Below, piece after piece: positions 40,593 through 64,000 of a stretch of 64,000 bases of DNA. Under the pieces are notes generated by a model. The model had not been told where the DNA came from, did not search any database, and saw nothing but the letters and a program-made list of their open reading frames with translations. Source of the DNA: an uncultured Spirochaetia bacterium (GTDB lineage: Bacteria; Spirochaetota; Spirochaetia; CAKZLE01); the NCBI GenBank assembly GCA_937125225.1, contig CAKZLE010000035.1, positions 76,705-140,704 of the forward strand. Direction: 5' to 3'. The first letter of the stretch is position 1, and each line of letters opens with the position of its first letter. The position numbers and the translations under genes are program-made.

Positions 40593-40599
40593 AAATAAA

Positions 40600-40940
40600 A
40601 AATCCAGGTCTATAAGCCGGGTTCTGTTGTCGACGATCATCTATCTGCATACCTTATTGCTAAGATATTCTAGCGACCTACCCGCAGCATTAAAGCGAAC
40701 AACTATGCTGCTGTTTGATCTTGCTCCTGAAGAGGTTTACCCTGCCCTGTCTGTTACCAGACAGGCGGTGGGCCCTTACCCCACCATTTCACCCTTACCT
40801 GCAAGCAGGCGGTATATTTTCTGTGGCACTTTCTGTAGCTTCAAAAAGAAGCTCCCGGGAGTTACCCGGCATCATGTTCTATGGAGCCCGGACTTTCCTC
40901 TCTATACATAAAGTATAAAGCGATCATCTGACCTAGATTA
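40600..40940 (-). ncRNA. rnpB: RNase P RNA (bacterial type A-like)
   Basis: The minus strand carries the universally conserved P4 5' strand GAGGAAAGTCCGGGCTCCATAG and the P4 3' strand ACAGAACCCGGCTTAT. It also has the CAGGTAAGGGTGAAATGGTGGGGTAAGGGCC module and a P1 pairing of TCTAGGTC (5') with GACCTGGA (3'). The region is a GC-rich island in an AT-rich genome and ends in a U-run. Confidence 0.85.
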
Positions 40941-45840: not shown

Positions 45841-45878
45841 AAAGAAAAAAAAAGCCTTTCAACTGAATGAAAGGCTTT
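45841..45878 (-). terminator. Intrinsic terminator downstream of tRNA-Tyr
   Basis: On the minus strand, AAAGCCTTTCATTCAGTTGAAAGGCTTT is followed by nine T residues. Confidence 0.6.
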
Positions 45879-45959
45879 TGGGGAGAGAAGGATTCGAACC
45901 TTCGAAGCTATTGCAACAGATTTACAGTCTGCCCCCTTTGGCCACTCGGGAACCTCCCC
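45879..45959 (-). tRNA. tRNA-Tyr (anticodon GUA), long variable arm, CCA not encoded
   Basis: The minus strand reads GGGGAGGTTCCCGAGTGGCCAAAGGGGGCAGACTGTAAATCTGTTGCAATAGCTTCGAAGGTTCGAATCCTTCTCTCCCCA. It folds as a cloverleaf with a GTA anticodon and resembles the E. coli tRNA-Tyr (recalled from memory, not searched). Confidence 0.9.
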
Positions 45960-46003
45960 AAATACGTTTTTAAACGTAACAAATAACATTAATAATGTCA
46001 ATC

Positions 46004-46077
46004 AGCCACCTGTCAGATTCGAACTGACGACCCCGAGATTACAAGTCACGTGCTCTGGCCAGCTGAGCTAAGGTGGC
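46004..46077 (-). tRNA. tRNA-Thr (anticodon UGU), CCA not encoded
   Basis: The minus strand reads GCCACCTTAGCTCAGCTGGCCAGAGCACGTGACTTGTAATCTCGGGGTCGTCAGTTCGAATCTGACAGGTGGCT. It has a 7-bp acceptor stem, a perfect T stem GTCAG/CTGAC, and the anticodon loop CTTGTAA. Confidence 0.9.
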
Positions 46078-55839: not shown

Positions 55840-57070
55840 ATCTCATGATCTCCAATGGTGGTTTACGAATCAATACTCTTATTGCAGAATATATAGATAA
55901 TAAAAAGATGATCAAGACAATCACCGCTAGAATAACAAGTTCTTTTCTATAGAGAACAATAGGAAGTTCCTGTATGAAGATAGTTATATTTTTCTGAAGG
56001 AGAAATGAGGCAACCTGTTCGATAAGAATAATGATTTCATTGATATGATTGGTACAAAGAAGCCCAAAGATCGTACCAAAGAATATTCCTATAAGAGACA
56101 GAACAAACCCCTGAACCAAGAAGATCCCATAGATTTCAGAGGTTGATGAACCAAGGGATCTTAAAAGTGCTATCTCATCTTTTTTATGAAAAACATATTT
56201 TTCAAAGGATGCCTTAGAATTCATTATAACAACTAGGAAAATGAGAGAAAGCAATACCATCATCCCATACTTCTCTAACATCAACGCAGAATATAGTCCG
56301 TAATTTGCCTGTTTCCAATCTGTGACACTCTTAACACCTTCAAGTTCTAAGAGGTCATCTTGTAGTTTGGATATCGAATTCAATGATGCCTTAATACCTA
56401 TAGAGGGTTGTTGATTGGGAAGGACTTTGCTCAAGGTCTCCTCATTTATAAATATCATCTGAGTATTTATTTCAGAAAAATTACTTGAGAATATTGATGA
56501 AACGGTATTTGAAAAGGTAAGTGGTACATGTTTGACAATCTTTCCTACACCCATCAGAGTGATCGAGATCTCAGAGTCTATTGGAGCCCGAAAAATCCTA
56601 CTCATATACTCACTGATCAAAATCTCTTGTGGGTCAAGTCTAGTCGGTTCCTCTAGAATATTTAGATGTTCTATAAATCCCGTATCTGTGGAAAATGCAG
56701 TATTTTCAATGCCCCTTAGGAGTACCGGATAATATTGATCGTTTCGGTATTCGATAAGGGCATTGGTGTCTAGGAACCTGACAGCAGATTCTACCGAAGA
56801 AAACTGCCTGATACGGTCCTGAACCTGATATATATCAGCATCTTCGCTTAACTCAACCTGGAGATGATAGGATTCAATCTCTCTTAGATCAGATAGGTAA
56901 CCAGATTGAAGACCATTCATGATACCAATTACTATAAAAATCGCTATAAACCCGATAGTAATACCTAATACGGTGAATAAAGCGGAGGTATATCGTTTAT
57001 TCCTCCTACTGAAAAGGAACTTCTTAGCAATATAGATAGACGATCTCAAGGATCGAAAACTATTAATCAT
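55832..57070 (-). CDS. LolC/LolE-family (FtsX-like) ABC transporter permease
   Basis: Same architecture as the other permease, so two permeases flank the ATPase as in lolCDE. Confidence 0.7.
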   Translation of the reverse strand: MINSFRSLRSSIYIAKKFLFSRRNKRYTSALFTVLGITIGFIAIFIVIGIMNGLQSGYLSDLREIESYHLQVELSEDADIYQVQDRIRQFSSVESAVRFLDTNALIEYRNDQYYPVLLRGIENTAFSTDTGFIEHLNILEEPTRLDPQEILISEYMSRIFRAPIDSEISITLMGVGKIVKHVPLTFSNTVSSIFSSNFSEINTQMIFINEETLSKVLPNQQPSIGIKASLNSISKLQDDLLELEGVKSVTDWKQANYGLYSALMLEKYGMMVLLSLIFLVVIMNSKASFEKYVFHKKDEIALLRSLGSSTSEIYGIFLVQGFVLSLIGIFFGTIFGLLCTNHINEIIILIEQVASFLLQKNITIFIQELPIVLYRKELVILAVIVLIIFLLSIYSAIRVLIRKPPLEIMRYE

Positions 57071-58103
57071 TTATCACCTCTATAATCTCATTATCAGATG
57101 AATAGATGATGGTCGCATAGTATATACCGTCAAGATAAACCTTTTCTTTGCGACCATCCTCTTCATAAGTTACTTCTTTATGGAGAAGACCATTATTCAT
57201 GATTCGAATGGTTCTTTGATCAAATTCATTTAAACTGTAGGTATATTTCATGATACCTTCTTCCGTTTGAATTTGTTTTTCATATAATACACCATTTTCA
57301 TCATAGGAGTTAATAAGATGATAGTCTTCAGAAGAGTTCAAAGTTGAATTGAAAACTTCTTCCAGGAGTTTCCCAGATTTTACACTGCTTATTGTTTTCA
57401 ATTGAGTTTTGTAGGTATGATCTACTAAAATCTCGATGTTTGTATCATCTGAAGATTCGAGTATTCTCTCATTTTCAAGAATGCCACTTCTGTAGGTTAA
57501 GGACGTCTGTTTACCATCTTTAATGAGGTTTACCTTGAAAATATCGTTGCTACCGATAGCAAAAGTATTCTGTTCTATTGAAAAGATTAACGTATGATCA
57601 AGTGATTGTTTATGATCAAGGTCTTCTTGATAGACCATAAGTCCTTCAAGACGTCCTTGTGCATTAACAAAGAAAAATGATTTCTTAATAATACCATCTG
57701 ACTCTCTTACGATAGAATAGAGTTGCCCTTTAGAATCATAAAGATAAGTCTCATTCTGATAACTCCCATCAACAAGTTGGCTCATAGTAGAGATTTGATT
57801 ATTTATATGATGCGTCTCAATGAGAAGGTTCCCCTCTCCATCTTTACGATCAATATAGGTATGTACGCCCTCGTTTACTCTTTGTTCAATCCACAAGAGT
57901 TGATTATCGAAGTAAAGGCTTTTTCTTAAAGTATTATTTTCATCAATCTTAACATAATATCCTGATGGGAAAGGAGGGGCTCCCTCTAATTCAAAAAGTT
58001 TTTGCCCTATGGTATTTGACGAATAAAAGTGGACCTCTACAGCATGAATACTTAACGCGATACAAATATACAGTATTATGAGTATTGGCCACTTTCTTAT
58101 CAT
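57063..58103 (-). CDS. Secreted MORN/YwqK-like repeat protein
   Basis: Signal peptide MIRKWPILIILYICIALSIHA, then repeated Y-x-(D/E)-x-x-G-x-L...G...Y units (YLYDSKGQLYSIV, VNAQGRLEGLMVY, YDENGVLYEKQ, YEEDGRKEKVYLDG). Confidence 0.4.
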   Translation of the reverse strand: MIRKWPILIILYICIALSIHAVEVHFYSSNTIGQKLFELEGAPPFPSGYYVKIDENNTLRKSLYFDNQLLWIEQRVNEGVHTYIDRKDGEGNLLIETHHINNQISTMSQLVDGSYQNETYLYDSKGQLYSIVRESDGIIKKSFFFVNAQGRLEGLMVYQEDLDHKQSLDHTLIFSIEQNTFAIGSNDIFKVNLIKDGKQTSLTYRSGILENERILESSDDTNIEILVDHTYKTQLKTISSVKSGKLLEEVFNSTLNSSEDYHLINSYDENGVLYEKQIQTEEGIMKYTYSLNEFDQRTIRIMNNGLLHKEVTYEEDGRKEKVYLDGIYYATIIYSSDNEIIEVIND

Positions 58104-58969
58104 GCCAATCCTAATAATGAATCAATAAAATCGGCTTTATTGAAGGGTCTCAAGTCTCCATATTGTTCTCCTACACCGATATAAGCAATAGGAATATTGA
58201 GTTTCTTTCCGATTTGAACAATACTTCCACCCTTTGCAGCAGAATCATATTTAGTGAGAACTATTGCATCAACATCTACTGATTCATTGAAAAGTTCAGC
58301 CTGTCTTAGCCCATTTTGTCCAGTTGTTGCATCTATGACTAGAATCTTCTTATAGTTCTCTTTTGGTAACTTACTTGCAACGATCTTATCGATCTTTTTG
58401 AGCTCTCTTAGTAGATTTTCCTTCGTATGCATCCTCCCAGCGGTGTCGGCAAGGATAACTTGTTCTTTTCGGGCGATTGCACTATCGATCGTATCAAAGA
58501 TTACCGCACCAGGGTCAGAACCAGGTGATTGTTTCACGATCCTTGTGCCTAGTCTTTCTGCATGAAGTGATAATTGGTCTATCGCAGCAGCTCTGAAGGT
58601 ATCAGCTGCTCCTAAGACTGTAGAAATATTCCTCTGCTGGAATAAATGAGAGATCTTAGCAATCGTAGTAGTCTTCCCTACACCATTGACTCCTAAAACC
58701 AAGAAAATCATCGGTTTATCCTGCGGTTCAATGATAAAATCAATACTCTCTACATATGCGGAGAGTATGGTCTTCATCTCCTGAAGTAAGGTAGTTTTAT
58801 CTAGCTTCTTCTTTTTAGAGATTTCTCTCAGATCCTCAACAAGTTCGAATGTTATCTGAGCACCAAGATCTCCTTCGATCAAAGTATCTTCTAGATCTTC
58901 GAAGAATATCTCGTCGATCTTATTTCTTCTGAATATATTCGTGAGTTTTTTACCAAAGAAATTTTCCAT
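58100..58969 (-). CDS. ftsY: Signal recognition particle receptor FtsY (short form)
   Basis: NG domain with ...IFLVLGVNGVGKTTTIAK..., ...ILADTAGR..., ...LTKYD.... Confidence 0.9.
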   Translation of the reverse strand: MENFFGKKLTNIFRRNKIDEIFFEDLEDTLIEGDLGAQITFELVEDLREISKKKKLDKTTLLQEMKTILSAYVESIDFIIEPQDKPMIFLVLGVNGVGKTTTIAKISHLFQQRNISTVLGAADTFRAAAIDQLSLHAERLGTRIVKQSPGSDPGAVIFDTIDSAIARKEQVILADTAGRMHTKENLLRELKKIDKIVASKLPKENYKKILVIDATTGQNGLRQAELFNESVDVDAIVLTKYDSAAKGGSIVQIGKKLNIPIAYIGVGEQYGDLRPFNKADFIDSLLGLA

Positions 58970-58995
58970 ATCAAGCCCTTTCTATAATAGTTTGT

Positions 58996-60171
58996 TTAAT
59001 AGATCCTATGGTAGTAATCCAAAAGATCGATGATAGAACGAATACCTAGATAAACCGTGGTGGTATTACCAGCAAGCTGTAAGGTCTTCCAGTATCCCTG
59101 ATTGGTAGTATCATACATGAATTTGGAAAAAATTGATATAGGAAGAGTGAGAATCACAGTCCCTAGAGAGTCATAGAAACTCCTCTTTCCTATTGCTATT
59201 TGTTCCTTGAAATCAAGCCAATATGGTCGGAGGTAGATGACCTCCTGAAGGGATGATTCAGACAAGGATTTTCTGAATAATTCAAATCCATCTAAGTCCA
59301 TTTCAATAATATCTGAATATTGGCGATCATACTGATTGGAAAGAATAAAGGGGGTCTCTCCAACATTCTGTGCATTTATCGATAATGTGGCACCTAATGG
59401 CATCGAGGAAATATAGTGCTGCTCTCCATTCAATCCATCTTGTTCTATTTCAATCTCCTGATAATAATCTAGTACAGCAATATTCCTCTTTTCAAGCAAC
59501 ACATCTTCAAGATAGATCGAAACAGCATAAACCCCTTTGGGAAGTACATTGAATATCTCATGAGAGGGTGTGGTGATAACGGTATTATTCAGTTTTAAAG
59601 TTATCTGATGTTTATGGTCATAATCTATATGAAGGATTCCTGTCTCGATATCAGTGAGATCTTCGACTACAGCCTTAAACATCTTGGAAAGTTCATCAAA
59701 TAGATGATTTTTCGTTATAATATTTGAATAGAGTGTATTTCTCGTGAGATCTCGATCTACTTTGATAAGTTCAAAAATAAGAAGATCTTCTATATGATTG
59801 AAACGTCCGTAGACCATCGTATCTAAATTATCTTTATTAAGATAATAGGAAGCAGTTATGTCATTTTCTAAGGTGAAGATCGTTGAATTATCAAAACTTT
59901 TTCCCTCAGAATAATAAGAGACAATACTCGAGGAAGTGAATTCTGTTTGGAACAAAGAGATGAATTCATTTGAGGTAAAAAGAGCTGAAATATTATCATA
60001 TAGTTCAGAATAAACAGAATCAATGATATATTGCTGTTCACCCTCGACACTGATGCTTTCATGTAGTTCTATAGGGAATAGTCCAACATTCAATATTTCA
60101 TCTACTGCAAAGAGACCTGAGGAGAGAGTACAGAACAGGCCTATTGTTAACAGGATTCTTAATCGCTTGAT
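58996..60171 (-). CDS. Hypothetical secreted protein; its signal peptide is only reachable from a non-canonical (ATC) start
   Basis: The ORF track starts at the TTG at 60093 (MNVGLF...). The same frame stays open upstream to 60195 and encodes KRLRILLTIGLFCTLSSGLFA|VDE, a canonical signal peptide. That stretch has no ATG/GTG/TTG; the candidate start is ATC at 60171, with GGAG 6 nt upstream. Confidence 0.45.
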   Translation of the reverse strand: MKRLRILLTIGLFCTLSSGLFAVDEILNVGLFPIELHESISVEGEQQYIIDSVYSELYDNISALFTSNEFISLFQTEFTSSSIVSYYSEGKSFDNSTIFTLENDITASYYLNKDNLDTMVYGRFNHIEDLLIFELIKVDRDLTRNTLYSNIITKNHLFDELSKMFKAVVEDLTDIETGILHIDYDHKHQITLKLNNTVITTPSHEIFNVLPKGVYAVSIYLEDVLLEKRNIAVLDYYQEIEIEQDGLNGEQHYISSMPLGATLSINAQNVGETPFILSNQYDRQYSDIIEMDLDGFELFRKSLSESSLQEVIYLRPYWLDFKEQIAIGKRSFYDSLGTVILTLPISIFSKFMYDTTNQGYWKTLQLAGNTTTVYLGIRSIIDLLDYYHRIY

Positions 60172-61263
60172 TCCAATCTCCAGGTAAGATATGTCTCAAT
60201 TAATGTATCAATTGCACCATCCATCACAGACTGTATATTCCCGATCTGATGTTGTGTACGATGATCCTTAACCATGGTATAGGGTTGAAAAACATATGAT
60301 CTGATTTGATTTCCCCAAGAAATATCTTTCTTTTCCATAGCGTGTTTAGACTGTTCCGCCTCTTTTTGTATTCTGTAGTACTCAAAGAGTCTAGAGGTCA
60401 ATACTTTCATAGCCATTGCTTTATTCTTATGCTGGGATCTCTCATTCTGACATTGCACGACTATACCGGTCTCTAGATGGGTGAGTCTCACTGCAGAATC
60501 TGTCTTATTGACATGCTGACCACCGGCACCTGATGCACGATAGGTATCAATCCTTATATCTTCAGGTTTGATATTGACATCAATAGTGTCATCGATCACC
60601 GGAGATACATATACTGATGAGAATGTTGTATGTCTTCTTTTGTTTGAATCAAAAGGAGAAATCCTGACAAGTCTATGCACTCCACTCTCACCTTTCAGAT
60701 ATCCGTAGGAATTCTTTCCATTGATCTGAATAGTGACAGATTTGATTCCTCCCTCTGATTCCTGAAGATCAAGGATCTGCGTCTTGAAATGACAGTTCTC
60801 AGCCCAGCGAGAATACATCCTAAGCAACATACTGACCCAATCACATGCCTCGGTACCACCTGCACCGGAATGGATCGTGAGAAAGGCGTTGTTCTTGTCA
60901 TAGATATCACTGAGCAATGATGCAATCTTTAGACTCTCATAGATTCTTTCATTCTTCTCAATCAAAGCAAACAGATCTTGTGCAGTATCCTCATCATACT
61001 CCTCTTCAAGAAGTTGGATATATTCATGAGACTCTTCTATCTGATTGAGGAGGTCTAACCAGGGGTCTAGTTCCTCTTTAATTTGTGAAATCTCGGAGAA
61101 GATCTTCTCAGCGGTCTCTTTATCGTTCCAAAAATCGGTTGCTAGAGTCTTCTTTTCCAATTGAGCCAATTTACCCTGTTTAGTATCCGGGTCAAAGTCG
61201 CCTCCATGTGGTCATTGTCTCTTGCTCAAGGGTCAGTAATCTCTGTTTATATTCAGGTATCAT
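60159..61263 (-). CDS. prfB: Peptide chain release factor 2, expressed through a programmed +1 ribosomal frameshift
   Basis: The ATG at 61263 (AGGAG RBS) opens a 23-codon frame, MIPEYKQRLLTLEQETMTTWRRL, ending at CTT TGA C (61197-61191) with an internal SD-like GGAGG 3 nt upstream. The +1 frame continues DPDTKQGKLAQLEKKTLATDFWNDKE... through the GGQ motif (YRASGAGGQHVN) and SPF (LVRISPFDS) to the stop at 60159. Confidence 0.9.
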
Positions 61264-61283
61264 CTATAGCTCCTAACTGATCA

Positions 61284-63194
61284 CTATTTCATCTTCTCGA
61301 TACGAATCGAAATGGTATTCTCCCAGAACTCTCCAGGTTTTATATCAAGGTCCCAGAACGGTAAAGTCCTAGTATACTGATAGATATCCTCTTCACCTAG
61401 TTGTGTGTGGATAGTCGTATTATAATTTTCTTTGATAACCGAATATCGCTTATCTGAAAAGAGTGAAACGATTGCTTTCTTATTAAGATCTTTAAACCTG
61501 AGAAGTTTAACGTTGTTCAGACGGGAATCGACACTAGACATCTCTCGTACTAGATTCAGGTCAAAAGATGCAATCTCTAACATGTCCTCAGAATCATAGG
61601 CGAATGAAAGATTCATCTCAGATCCAAATTTTGCTTCGATCTTTCTTTTAGAGTTGTTAAAGATTTTATAATCTAACTGTATCGTATTGGTATGACAAGT
61701 AAATTTCTTGATCAGATGTATGTCAGTATTCTTGAGAAAAGGGACCTTAACATTCGTAGAGAAGGTGATGTTCTTTTGATCCTTATCTAAACGATCCAGT
61801 TCGAAGACGGTATCTTCAAGGGAATAGATTCCTTTATCACTGTATTTATCATAAGTAGGACTCAAAGCCTGGTCACTGATGAATAGATCAGTAAAGCCTC
61901 TTTGACATGTACCCTTTGGGATCGATGGAATCGTCGAATGTACGATCTCCTCAGAATGTCCAACGAAGGTGTCTAGGTAGTTCCAAGAATTTACTAGATA
62001 ATCTAGTTCGATCATCGTTGCACCAACTTTGTCGAAAACGGAAGTAATATTCTTACCTCGGTATATATATTCCTCTTCCCCATCAAGATCAAGATCATAG
62101 GAAGTTATCGATGTTGAAAATACACCCTTCTCTCTTGAAAGCTTTTCAACCTCAATCATATGCTGGTAATTCTCTTTTCTCAAATAGTTCTGATAGACTC
62201 CACCATTTTGAGATATTGAAAAACCTCCAAATGATTCAGCTTTCAATAACTCTTTCGAGGCTATCTTTTTGAGCGATTTCTCTTTTTTTATCCCAGGGAT
62301 TAAACGTGAAACATACAAGAGTTTACCATACATATTTTTCATTTCAGGATATTTCAAAAACATCTGATTAAAATGCTTAATATCTTTTGGGAGGGTATCT
62401 TTGAACCATCCCATTGCCTGATACCCCTGTTTCCGGATGATTTCATTCTGCATATTCATCGGTAATACTGTTGTAATATCAAGTTCATTACAGATTTCCT
62501 GTAATCGCTTACTTAGCTCTACGATGGTATGAGGGTCGCCTATGATTGAATTCGATATGATGGTATTCACATCCAACATAATCGTAGCCATATTAGCATG
62601 AGGTTTCTTAAAAGTTGCAGAGAGCGCATGCTTAACATAGTCGTAATCTTTATTATTCAATGCAAAGGTCAAAGCTCGGTGAATGGGGTATACTTTGATC
62701 ATATTACCCATTTCTTGCATAGAAAAGGGTTTGAGATCGTTAGTCTGAGGTTCTAAATGCTGAATTAATGATGTTATACCACAGGTAGACAGTGACGCTA
62801 TTAATTGAGGGTTCCAAACCTGTTCCGTGATCCAGGCACTTCTTGCCCGGTATCCAAAACGTTTTCTGATATAGGTTGTAGTCATCTCAATCTGTTGAGT
62901 TCTGTCTTTTGCAGGAATTATCTGAAAGATAGGATCATAAAAACCACCGGATAGTAGTTCAAGTTGTTTACGTTTCACCATATCTGCTATGAGCATATTG
63001 ATCTCTGGATAGTTACTTTCTAACCATTCATAGATGATACCAGACAGATATAGTGAAATCTTCATTTCAGGATTAGCATACAAAAAAGTCAGAAGTGGCT
63101 TATAGCATGAGTAGAGACTGAATTCAAAATCTTCATTTCTTGTTCCCAAAGGTTTTTGATCCTGGAAACCTATAATTAACCTCTTCTGCCCCAT
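61284..63194 (-). CDS. Glycoside hydrolase family 57-like protein (divergent)
   Basis: The N-terminus is alignable to GH57 4-alpha-glucanotransferase/branching enzymes: ...GFQDQKPLG...YKPLLTFLYANPEMKISLYLSGIIYEWLESN...KRKQLELLSGGFYDPIF..., plus a WITEQVW block matching the nucleophile region. The region-I HxHQP motif is replaced by FQDQKP. Confidence 0.65.
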   Translation of the reverse strand: MGQKRLIIGFQDQKPLGTRNEDFEFSLYSCYKPLLTFLYANPEMKISLYLSGIIYEWLESNYPEINMLIADMVKRKQLELLSGGFYDPIFQIIPAKDRTQQIEMTTTYIRKRFGYRARSAWITEQVWNPQLIASLSTCGITSLIQHLEPQTNDLKPFSMQEMGNMIKVYPIHRALTFALNNKDYDYVKHALSATFKKPHANMATIMLDVNTIISNSIIGDPHTIVELSKRLQEICNELDITTVLPMNMQNEIIRKQGYQAMGWFKDTLPKDIKHFNQMFLKYPEMKNMYGKLLYVSRLIPGIKKEKSLKKIASKELLKAESFGGFSISQNGGVYQNYLRKENYQHMIEVEKLSREKGVFSTSITSYDLDLDGEEEYIYRGKNITSVFDKVGATMIELDYLVNSWNYLDTFVGHSEEIVHSTIPSIPKGTCQRGFTDLFISDQALSPTYDKYSDKGIYSLEDTVFELDRLDKDQKNITFSTNVKVPFLKNTDIHLIKKFTCHTNTIQLDYKIFNNSKRKIEAKFGSEMNLSFAYDSEDMLEIASFDLNLVREMSSVDSRLNNVKLLRFKDLNKKAIVSLFSDKRYSVIKENYNTTIHTQLGEEDIYQYTRTLPFWDLDIKPGEFWENTISIRIEKMK

Positions 63195-63220: not shown

Positions 63221-64000
63221 CTAATCAGCGATCCTTATACAAGATGTAGGACAAGCTTCGGCAGCTTTATCTCTTCCCTCAGGTTCGATAGTATAATCAA
63301 TCTCTGAGAGAAAGTTCTTGACCGTATAACCAGCTTCTGGAAACTTTCGTTCGCATATCTTACAACCGATACATCCGACTGTACAGGCTCTCTTAACTGC
63401 AGCACCTTTATCATTGGAATTACAGGCAATAAAGTAATCTGCATCATAAGGAATCATCTTCATGACTCCCGTAGGACAAACTGTAACACATTTTTCACAT
63501 CCTATGCAAACCTCTTTATCAACATTTATCCTGCCATCCTCACCCTTGGTAATTGCATCTACGGGACATACTGTTATACAGCTACCTAAGGCAAGACACC
63601 CATATTTACAACTCTTATCACCTTGAAAGAGAATCGCTGCAGCATTACAGTCGAGAATACCATCATAGGAAAAATCCTTCTTTGAGGTCTCATCATTTCC
63701 AAAACAATGGACTCTTGCTACCATCTTCACAGAATCTCCACCTGTTGCTTCAAGTCCCATGATCTCTGCGATAGCAACTTGAGTTGTTGCTCCTCCGGGA
63801 GCACATAGAGTGATATCAGCTGCAGCATTGACGATCGCATCTGCATAGGCAGCACAACCTGCAAAGCCACAGGCTCCACAGTTCGCACTCGGAAGAGCAT
63901 CTTCAACTGCTAATACACGTTCATCTTTCTTAATTGCAAGCTTCTTTGATGCAAAGGCAAGCCCGAACCCGAAAAGAGTACCTAATACTGATACTGTCAG
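63221..64000 (-). CDS. rnfB: Rnf electron-transport complex subunit B (RnfB), 5'-partial, continuing beyond the window end
   Basis: The frame is open from the window edge. It carries the RnfB N-terminal Fe-S motif ...PSANCGACGFAGCAAYADAI..., then two ferredoxin-like 4Fe-4S motifs (CIGCEKCVTVCP, CIGCKICERKFP) and further Cys clusters. The ORF-track Met at 63760 is internal. Confidence 0.7.
   Translation of the reverse strand: MTVSVLGTLFGFGLAFASKKLAIKKDERVLAVEDALPSANCGACGFAGCAAYADAIVNAAADITLCAPGGATTQVAIAEIMGLEATGGDSVKMVARVHCFGNDETSKKDFSYDGILDCNAAAILFQGDKSCKYGCLALGSCITVCPVDAITKGEDGRINVDKEVCIGCEKCVTVCPTGVMKMIPYDADYFIACNSNDKGAAVKRACTVGCIGCKICERKFPEAGYTVKNFLSEIDYTIEPEGRDKAAEACPTSCIRIAD

Follow-up and report, generated by a model that had tools for sequence, protein, structure and literature searches.

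We examined the gene that lies directly downstream of prfB in a 64,000-nucleotide (nt) stretch of DNA from an uncultured Spirochaetia bacterium (the window; the gene, its frame and its start codons are given in window coordinates on the minus strand). We observed that this gene carries a CTG codon at 60183, exactly where its relatives in 8/8 distinct lineages have ATG, the window being the only exception. The comparison indicates that the window carries a derived loss of an ATG that is under selection. Judged by homology, the true gene is 60183-58996 (395 codons) and its predicted product is an exported envelope protein, not the 365-aa cytoplasmic protein of the public gene models. What we describe is a lost or weakened start together with a shortened gene call, and not a new kind of initiation. 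Our preferred reading, to which we give about an even chance on the sequence evidence, is that the substitution is real and that a protein with its signal peptide would still be made by residual initiation at a near-cognate codon.

The public gene models begin at TTG 60093 and run to 58996. Upstream of this TTG a further 34 codons of the frame are open, from 60195 to 60094, and no ATG, GTG or TTG was found in frame between these two positions. The stretch translates to DISYLEIGIKRLRILLTIGLFCTLSSGLFAVDEI. The original prediction had pointed to this open frame, and to a signal peptide in it that lacked a canonical start codon; we recovered the same frame, and its positions were exact. Since gene callers accept only ATG, GTG and TTG, the TTG at 60093 was chosen and the signal peptide was cut off. 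The length of the open stretch is by itself unremarkable, as at least 31 open codons were present upstream in 4 of the 51 rough open reading frames (ORFs) of the window. The case therefore rests on the comparison with relatives.

A word-indexed protein search returned only the identical shortened model (P0001) and a 393-aa protein of 50% identity (P0002). With a full HMMER scan over cluster representatives, six further full-length orthologues (381-397 aa) were obtained, whose match to the profile began at the first residue. Scanning genomes yielded, in addition, a partial gene of 75% identity in a Spirochaetales metagenome genome (L004) as well as a Spirochaetia chromosome (L003). The junction between prfB and the downstream gene was compared in the DNA of all relatives, which make up eight distinct lineages of Spirochaetia metagenome genomes with GC contents of 38-57%. 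Protein-pattern and DNA-pattern scans of Joint Genome Institute (JGI) metagenome contigs gave no further orthologous junctions. At every locus compared the gene order was a GH57 glycoside hydrolase, prfB, the envelope gene, ftsY, a hypothetical protein of 340-350 aa and an FtsX/MacB-type ABC transporter. This order extends over 57063-63194 in the window and was seen at loci L001, L005, L008, L009, L011, L013 and L015.

In the relatives the junction reads ...AC ATG GAG AYT... or ...TT ATG GAG ACA..., and the ATG spans the third base of a prfB Thr (ACA) or Leu (TTA) codon and the first two bases of the Trp codon after it. The window differs from this by one base. Its prfB reads ACC TGG instead of ACA TGG, which is silent for Thr and turns the ATG of the downstream gene into CTG, the C at 60183 being at once the first base of the CTG and the third base of the Thr codon. 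A single-base change from ATG had been considered before, but at the ATC codon at 60171. The idea of such a change survives and its position (60169) does not: if there was one, it was from ATG to CTG at 60183, a codon that had been listed among the alternatives. The claim that the start overlaps the 3' end of prfB was borne out as well. The last 25 nt of the window prfB are shared with the downstream gene, and the overlap measures 16, 19 or 25 nt in the eight lineages.

This overlap allowed us to estimate the selection on the start codon. We counted the four-fold degenerate sites in the last 250 codons of prfB, where 56 sites had a shared codon family in all nine genomes. None of these 56 sites was invariant among the eight relatives, while the A of the ATG was invariant in 8/8. 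As the first base of the start is a third-codon position of prfB, this difference argues that the ATG is under selection. GTG and TTG starts would be equally silent in prfB, yet they are absent from the eight lineages. Among the synonymous prfB variants ACA, ACG, ACT and ACC, this genome carries the one that gives no canonical start. In its genes ACC is about as frequent as ACA (186 versus 199), so the A-to-C change would be neutral for prfB.

The upstream codons also behave as a part of the protein. In all eight orthologues the N-terminus has one to four K/R residues and then a hydrophobic core, for which the best Kyte-Doolittle mean over 11 residues was 2.5-3.6, and although the N-terminal sequence differs among them, the signal-like character is kept. 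The window N-terminus has three K/R in residues 1-12 and a best 11-residue hydropathy of 2.52, at residue 10, which gives it the charged n-region and hydrophobic h-region of a Sec-type signal. The N-terminus called from TTG 60093 reached 0.97 and has no signal character. Codons 10-27 of the signal peptide had a ratio of nonsynonymous to synonymous substitution rates (dN/dS) of 0.155 against the closest relative, L004. With a signal-like start in every orthologue and this ratio, the earlier view that the signal peptide belongs to the protein, and that the call at TTG 60093 shortens it, was upheld. Candidate cleavage sites (at the hyphen) are LSSG-LFA (S, G) and GLFA-VDE (L, A) in the window, and LHA-ADA, ITA-GSA and LQA-ETT in the orthologues.

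We also considered a lipoprotein, with LFC as the lipobox, and rejected it as the Cys is not conserved. LFC is present in the window and in L004; in P0002, P0004, P0009 and P0010 the segment lacks Cys altogether, and in the others the Cys lies in the middle of the h-region.

The protein was modelled with AlphaFold2 on an eight-sequence alignment (mean predicted local distance difference test score, pLDDT, 75.5). The model has an N-terminal helix (2-24), an alpha/beta domain (31-177), beta-sandwich domains (184-317) and a C-terminal helical hairpin (325-394). In a Foldseek search against the PDB, the alpha/beta domain matched TolB (E 1.7e-6), the lipoprotein GNA1162 and the C-terminal domain of LpoB, with modest TM-scores. 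Five of the eight orthologues matched the Pfam family PEGA (PF08308; best E 6.9e-7), while the window protein scored 17.8 bits against it, the gathering cut-off being 20.8. Residues about 256-311 were matched repeatedly by multi-PEGA proteins, and beyond the weak PEGA match the family has no Pfam assignment. From the model and these matches, the protein is predicted to be an envelope protein, with a signal peptide, a TolB-N/LpoB-like domain, PEGA-like beta domains and a C-terminal helical hairpin. As its folds resemble those of periplasmic proteins and 5/8 orthologues match PEGA, the protein would need to be exported; an envelope protein needs a signal peptide, and the model starting at TTG 60093 would therefore be a truncation.

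A true start at TTG 60093, which would give a cytoplasmic protein without a signal peptide, appears very improbable to us. In its favour, no canonical start comes before it in the frame, and the deposited model (P0001) begins there. However, the codon is internal and not conserved in the orthologues and has no Shine-Dalgarno (SD) sequence, the 30 codons upstream of it are kept as coding and signal-like, and the domains of the protein resemble periplasmic ones. When the orthologues were compared, as the original prediction had proposed, none was found to start at the equivalent of 60093 without signal-peptide coding upstream; all of them carry the signal peptide.

The ATC at 60171 had been put forward as the start, which would make it an old AUC start or else a base error for ATG. 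It follows GGAG at a distance of 6 nt and would give the n-region MKRLR. However, the equivalent codon in the orthologues is ATC, ATA, GTA or AAA (Ile, Val or Lys). It is never a start codon, with no orthologue having ATG, GTG or TTG there, and all have ATG four codons upstream. Further, GGAG-N6-ATC is dictated by the prfB codons TGG AGA ... GAA TCA, and it is also found in L004 and L001, which have the ATG. We thus regard ATC 60171 as an extremely improbable original start, although its SD spacing keeps it plausible as a fallback. The ATT at 60177, which GGAG directly adjoins, is a poor candidate and unlikely to be the start.

In the reading that we prefer, one A-to-C substitution at 60183 would have turned ATG into CTG, silently in prfB (ACA to ACC), and the protein with its signal peptide would still be made by near-cognate initiation within the first five codons. 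Two codons are candidates for this. The CUG at 60183 has the ancestral position but lacks an SD at a working spacing, as GGAG overlaps it and only GAGA lies upstream. The AUC at 60171 has the only well-spaced SD core, the GGAG 6 nt upstream; a GGAG-type core at -16 to -7 was seen at about half of the rough gene starts in the window. Either start would give a competent n-region, MEIGIKRLR... from the CUG or MKRLR... from the AUC. The efficiency would be expected to be of the order of 1% of AUG. Near-cognate codons are known to initiate with formylmethionine (fMet) at roughly 0.1-3% of AUG, and when all 64 codons were measured in E. coli, the values for CUG, AUC, AUU and AUA, where the first residue is Met, were about 1-2% (0.1-3%) (bioRxiv 10.1101/063800).

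Ribosomes that terminate on prfB, 10-22 nt downstream of these codons, may help through local re-initiation. We observed that prfB and the envelope gene have the layout of a coupled pair, being co-directional with a stop/start overlap that is conserved. The ATGs of the orthologues mostly lack an SD and lie 16-25 nt before the prfB stop, a layout that fits termination-reinitiation coupling. In phage fr, coupled re-initiation across -38 nt has been documented (PMC12548453). A stronger form of the argument, in which the CUG or the SD-served AUC would be a fixed functional start, with initiation driven mainly by prfB-terminating ribosomes and start-codon stringency relaxed in termination-reinitiation, seems rather unlikely to us.

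Several observations weigh against our preferred reading. No SD precedes the CUG, and the only GGAG overlaps with it. The absence of GTG and TTG starts from the family suggests that weak codons are poorly tolerated here, and a CUG or AUC start may yield too little protein to be functional. The junction comparison revealed no compensatory change near the start, such as an upstream SD made in this lineage. No occluding RNA structure was seen, as the minimum free energy z-scores of six junctions ranged from -1.04 to +0.56 with no common hairpin, and this gives no support to coupling of the unfolding type. Finally, the relative-rate test given below has little power, so that a recent inactivation would leave no sign in it, and the window species is known from a single sequencing project.

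It is a distinct though minor possibility that the A-to-C change is real but silences the gene, with the ORF intact as the mutation is young; the gene would then be a nascent pseudogene or one that is dispensable in its niche. The strict ATG in 8/8 lineages, with GTG and TTG never used, indicates that weak starts are selected against, and this, the low efficiency of near-cognate codons in E. coli and the lack of a compensatory change all favour such a start loss. So does the rarity of AUG-to-CUG switches among functional or annotated genes (2 of 61,358; PMC5622118), a rarity in keeping with either a silenced gene or a young allele that is mildly deleterious. Against a start loss, the 395-codon frame is intact in an AT-rich gene, with no second lesion and no excess of amino-acid changes relative to L004. 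With L001 as the outgroup we counted 11 versus 9 unique changes in the window and L004 (chi2 0.2), and the other six outgroups gave no significant excess in the window lineage. The overall dN/dS against L004 was 0.055, with dS saturated. Thus neither extra disabling lesions nor relaxed constraint was found, with power being low for a recent event. In addition, the gene belongs to a conserved, closely packed operon, where ftsY follows it directly, and the pre-existing SD-plus-AUC and the prfB-coupled ribosomes would be routes to residual translation.

We also evaluated whether the CTG might be a consensus or assembly error, or a minority allele, in an organism that has ATG at 60183 and an ordinary gene. 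The window is one base away from the universal ATG, its contig was assembled from the metagenomes of one project, and the assemblies that carry the CTG may share the same reads. However, an ENA MEGAHIT contig of 152 kb (run ERR2094169, project PRJEB22134, aquaculture-system metagenomes, Shandong) showed no difference from the window in the locus of 7,098 nt that was compared, and consensus substitution errors are rare in well-covered Illumina contigs of 150 kb. The 365-aa product has been recorded in assemblies of NCBI, ENA and Logan, possibly all from the same reads; it would not be the call if the ATG were present, so that the recorded model speaks for the CTG. By exact look-up, neither the 395-aa product (M at the CTG) nor the 391-aa product (M at the ATC) is present in a collection of 15 billion proteins, so that a strain with the ATG is not recorded there. 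We consider an error or a minor allele quite unlikely, and less likely than a real substitution. Readings other than a substitution with initiation, a silenced gene or an error are improbable.

For two of the relatives, the ATG state is reproducible over independent data sets, unlike that of the one-project window species. The same L013/L014 and L009/L010 orthologues were present in JGI metagenome 3300042257 and in Logan assemblies of separate Sequence Read Archive (SRA) runs, with identical junctions.

When natural near-cognate starts are considered (AUU in E. coli infC, and rare annotated CUG, AUU, AUC and AUA starts), the window resembles them in having a conserved protein with only a near-cognate codon at the required start; CTG 60183 is a non-AUG codon at the homologous start, with no canonical alternative that would keep the conserved N-terminus. 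The AUU of infC is conserved and regulatory, serving the autoregulation of initiation factor 3 (IF3). In contrast, the non-AUG codon of the window is unique to one genome (shared by 0/8 lineages, with ATG in 8/8) and looks like a recent substitution. As in the start-codon switches analysed by Belinky, Rogozin and Koonin (2017; PMC5622118), AUG is under purifying selection and a change to CUG very rare. Unlike in those switches, the start begins here on a base that is silent in prfB, an essential gene overlapping it, and selection can be read directly (8/8 versus 0/56). The locus also resembles termination-reinitiation pairs, such as the coat-lysis pair of phages fr and MS2 (-38 nt) and ATGA/TGATG junctions (PMC12548453), in that the genes are co-directional and the start, mostly with no SD of its own, lies 16-25 nt before the stop in a conserved arrangement. 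It differs from them in that its overlap exceeds the usual -1/-4 nt, and the coupling is deduced from the layout. Lastly, it is the same as other gene models cut by callers restricted to ATG, GTG and TTG, where the model begins at the first permitted codon and the signal peptide is lost.

The features of the locus are collected in Table 1.

Table 1. Coordinates of the envelope gene, its candidate start codons and prfB in the window
Feature	Position	Strand	Basis or state in relatives
Full gene by homology, 395 codons plus stop, from CTG	58996..60183	-	Alignment from residue 1 in 8 orthologues; PEGA matches, AlphaFold2 model, Foldseek
TTG taken as start by gene callers; internal Leu codon, no SD upstream	60091..60093	-	Leu (CTG) in L004; Phe, Arg, Gly and other residues among the remaining orthologues
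Signal-peptide coding stretch (M/L)EIGIKRLRILLTIGLFCTLSSGLFA, possible cleavage after SSG or LFA	60106..60183	-	Sequence; AlphaFold2 helix 2-24 at low pLDDT
prfB (release factor 2, RF2; 367 aa), from ATG 61263 to TAA 60161-60159	60159..61263	-	Sequence
ATC (Ile5 of homology-defined protein), near-cognate, GGAG with 6-nt spacer	60169..60171	-	ATC/ATA/GTA/AAA in orthologues
ATT (Ile3), near-cognate, abuts GGAG with 0-nt spacer	60175..60177	-	Sequence
GGAG, SD-like core; overlaps CTG, 6 nt upstream of ATC	60178..60181	-	Within conserved ATGGAGAYT (prfB TGG AGA)
CTG at position of the family's invariant ATG	60181..60183	-	ATG in 8/8 distinct lineages
In-frame TGA, upper bound of open frame	60196..60198	-	Read from sequence

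The prfB gene has the classical programmed +1 frameshift, CTT TGA C at 61197-61191, with GGAGG 3 nt upstream. Its public gene model has only 336 aa, from TTG 61169, and is thus also shortened; here the frameshift led to a cut of the same mechanical kind. A fusion of the envelope protein to RF2 by frameshifting was considered and dropped, since a signal peptide must be N-terminal and all the relatives have a separate ATG.

The conserved hypothetical gene after ftsY (57063-58103, minus strand) encodes 346 aa with no Pfam match and a signal-like N-terminus, MIRKWPILIILYICIALSIHA, and its start overlaps the ftsY stop by 4 nt. An Rfam scan of the whole window gave no match at the prfB/envelope-gene locus; elsewhere it returned only a bacterial class A RNase P RNA (298 bits, 40597-40939, minus strand) and adjacent genes for tRNA-Tyr(GTA) and tRNA-Thr(TGT) (45878-46077, minus strand). 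The ORF at 63221-64000 (minus strand), which was called from ATG 63760, is open upstream to the window edge over 80 codons. Judging from the synteny with L001, it probably belongs to the Rnf complex and starts outside the window.

Together, these comparisons provide a corrected gene model, and the case shows how gene callers can hide start-codon substitutions. Since the first base of the start is silent in an essential overlapping gene, its conservation in 8/8 lineages measures selection on the start alone. Should the CTG be real and expressed, the list of documented natural near-cognate starts would grow by one case, useful for understanding start choice in re-initiation; if it is not expressed, it would be a young start-loss allele. 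Neither outcome alters current understanding. Were the prfB-driven functional start to hold true, it would be a natural case of relaxed stringency inside an arrangement that is conserved across a class-level clade of spirochaetes.

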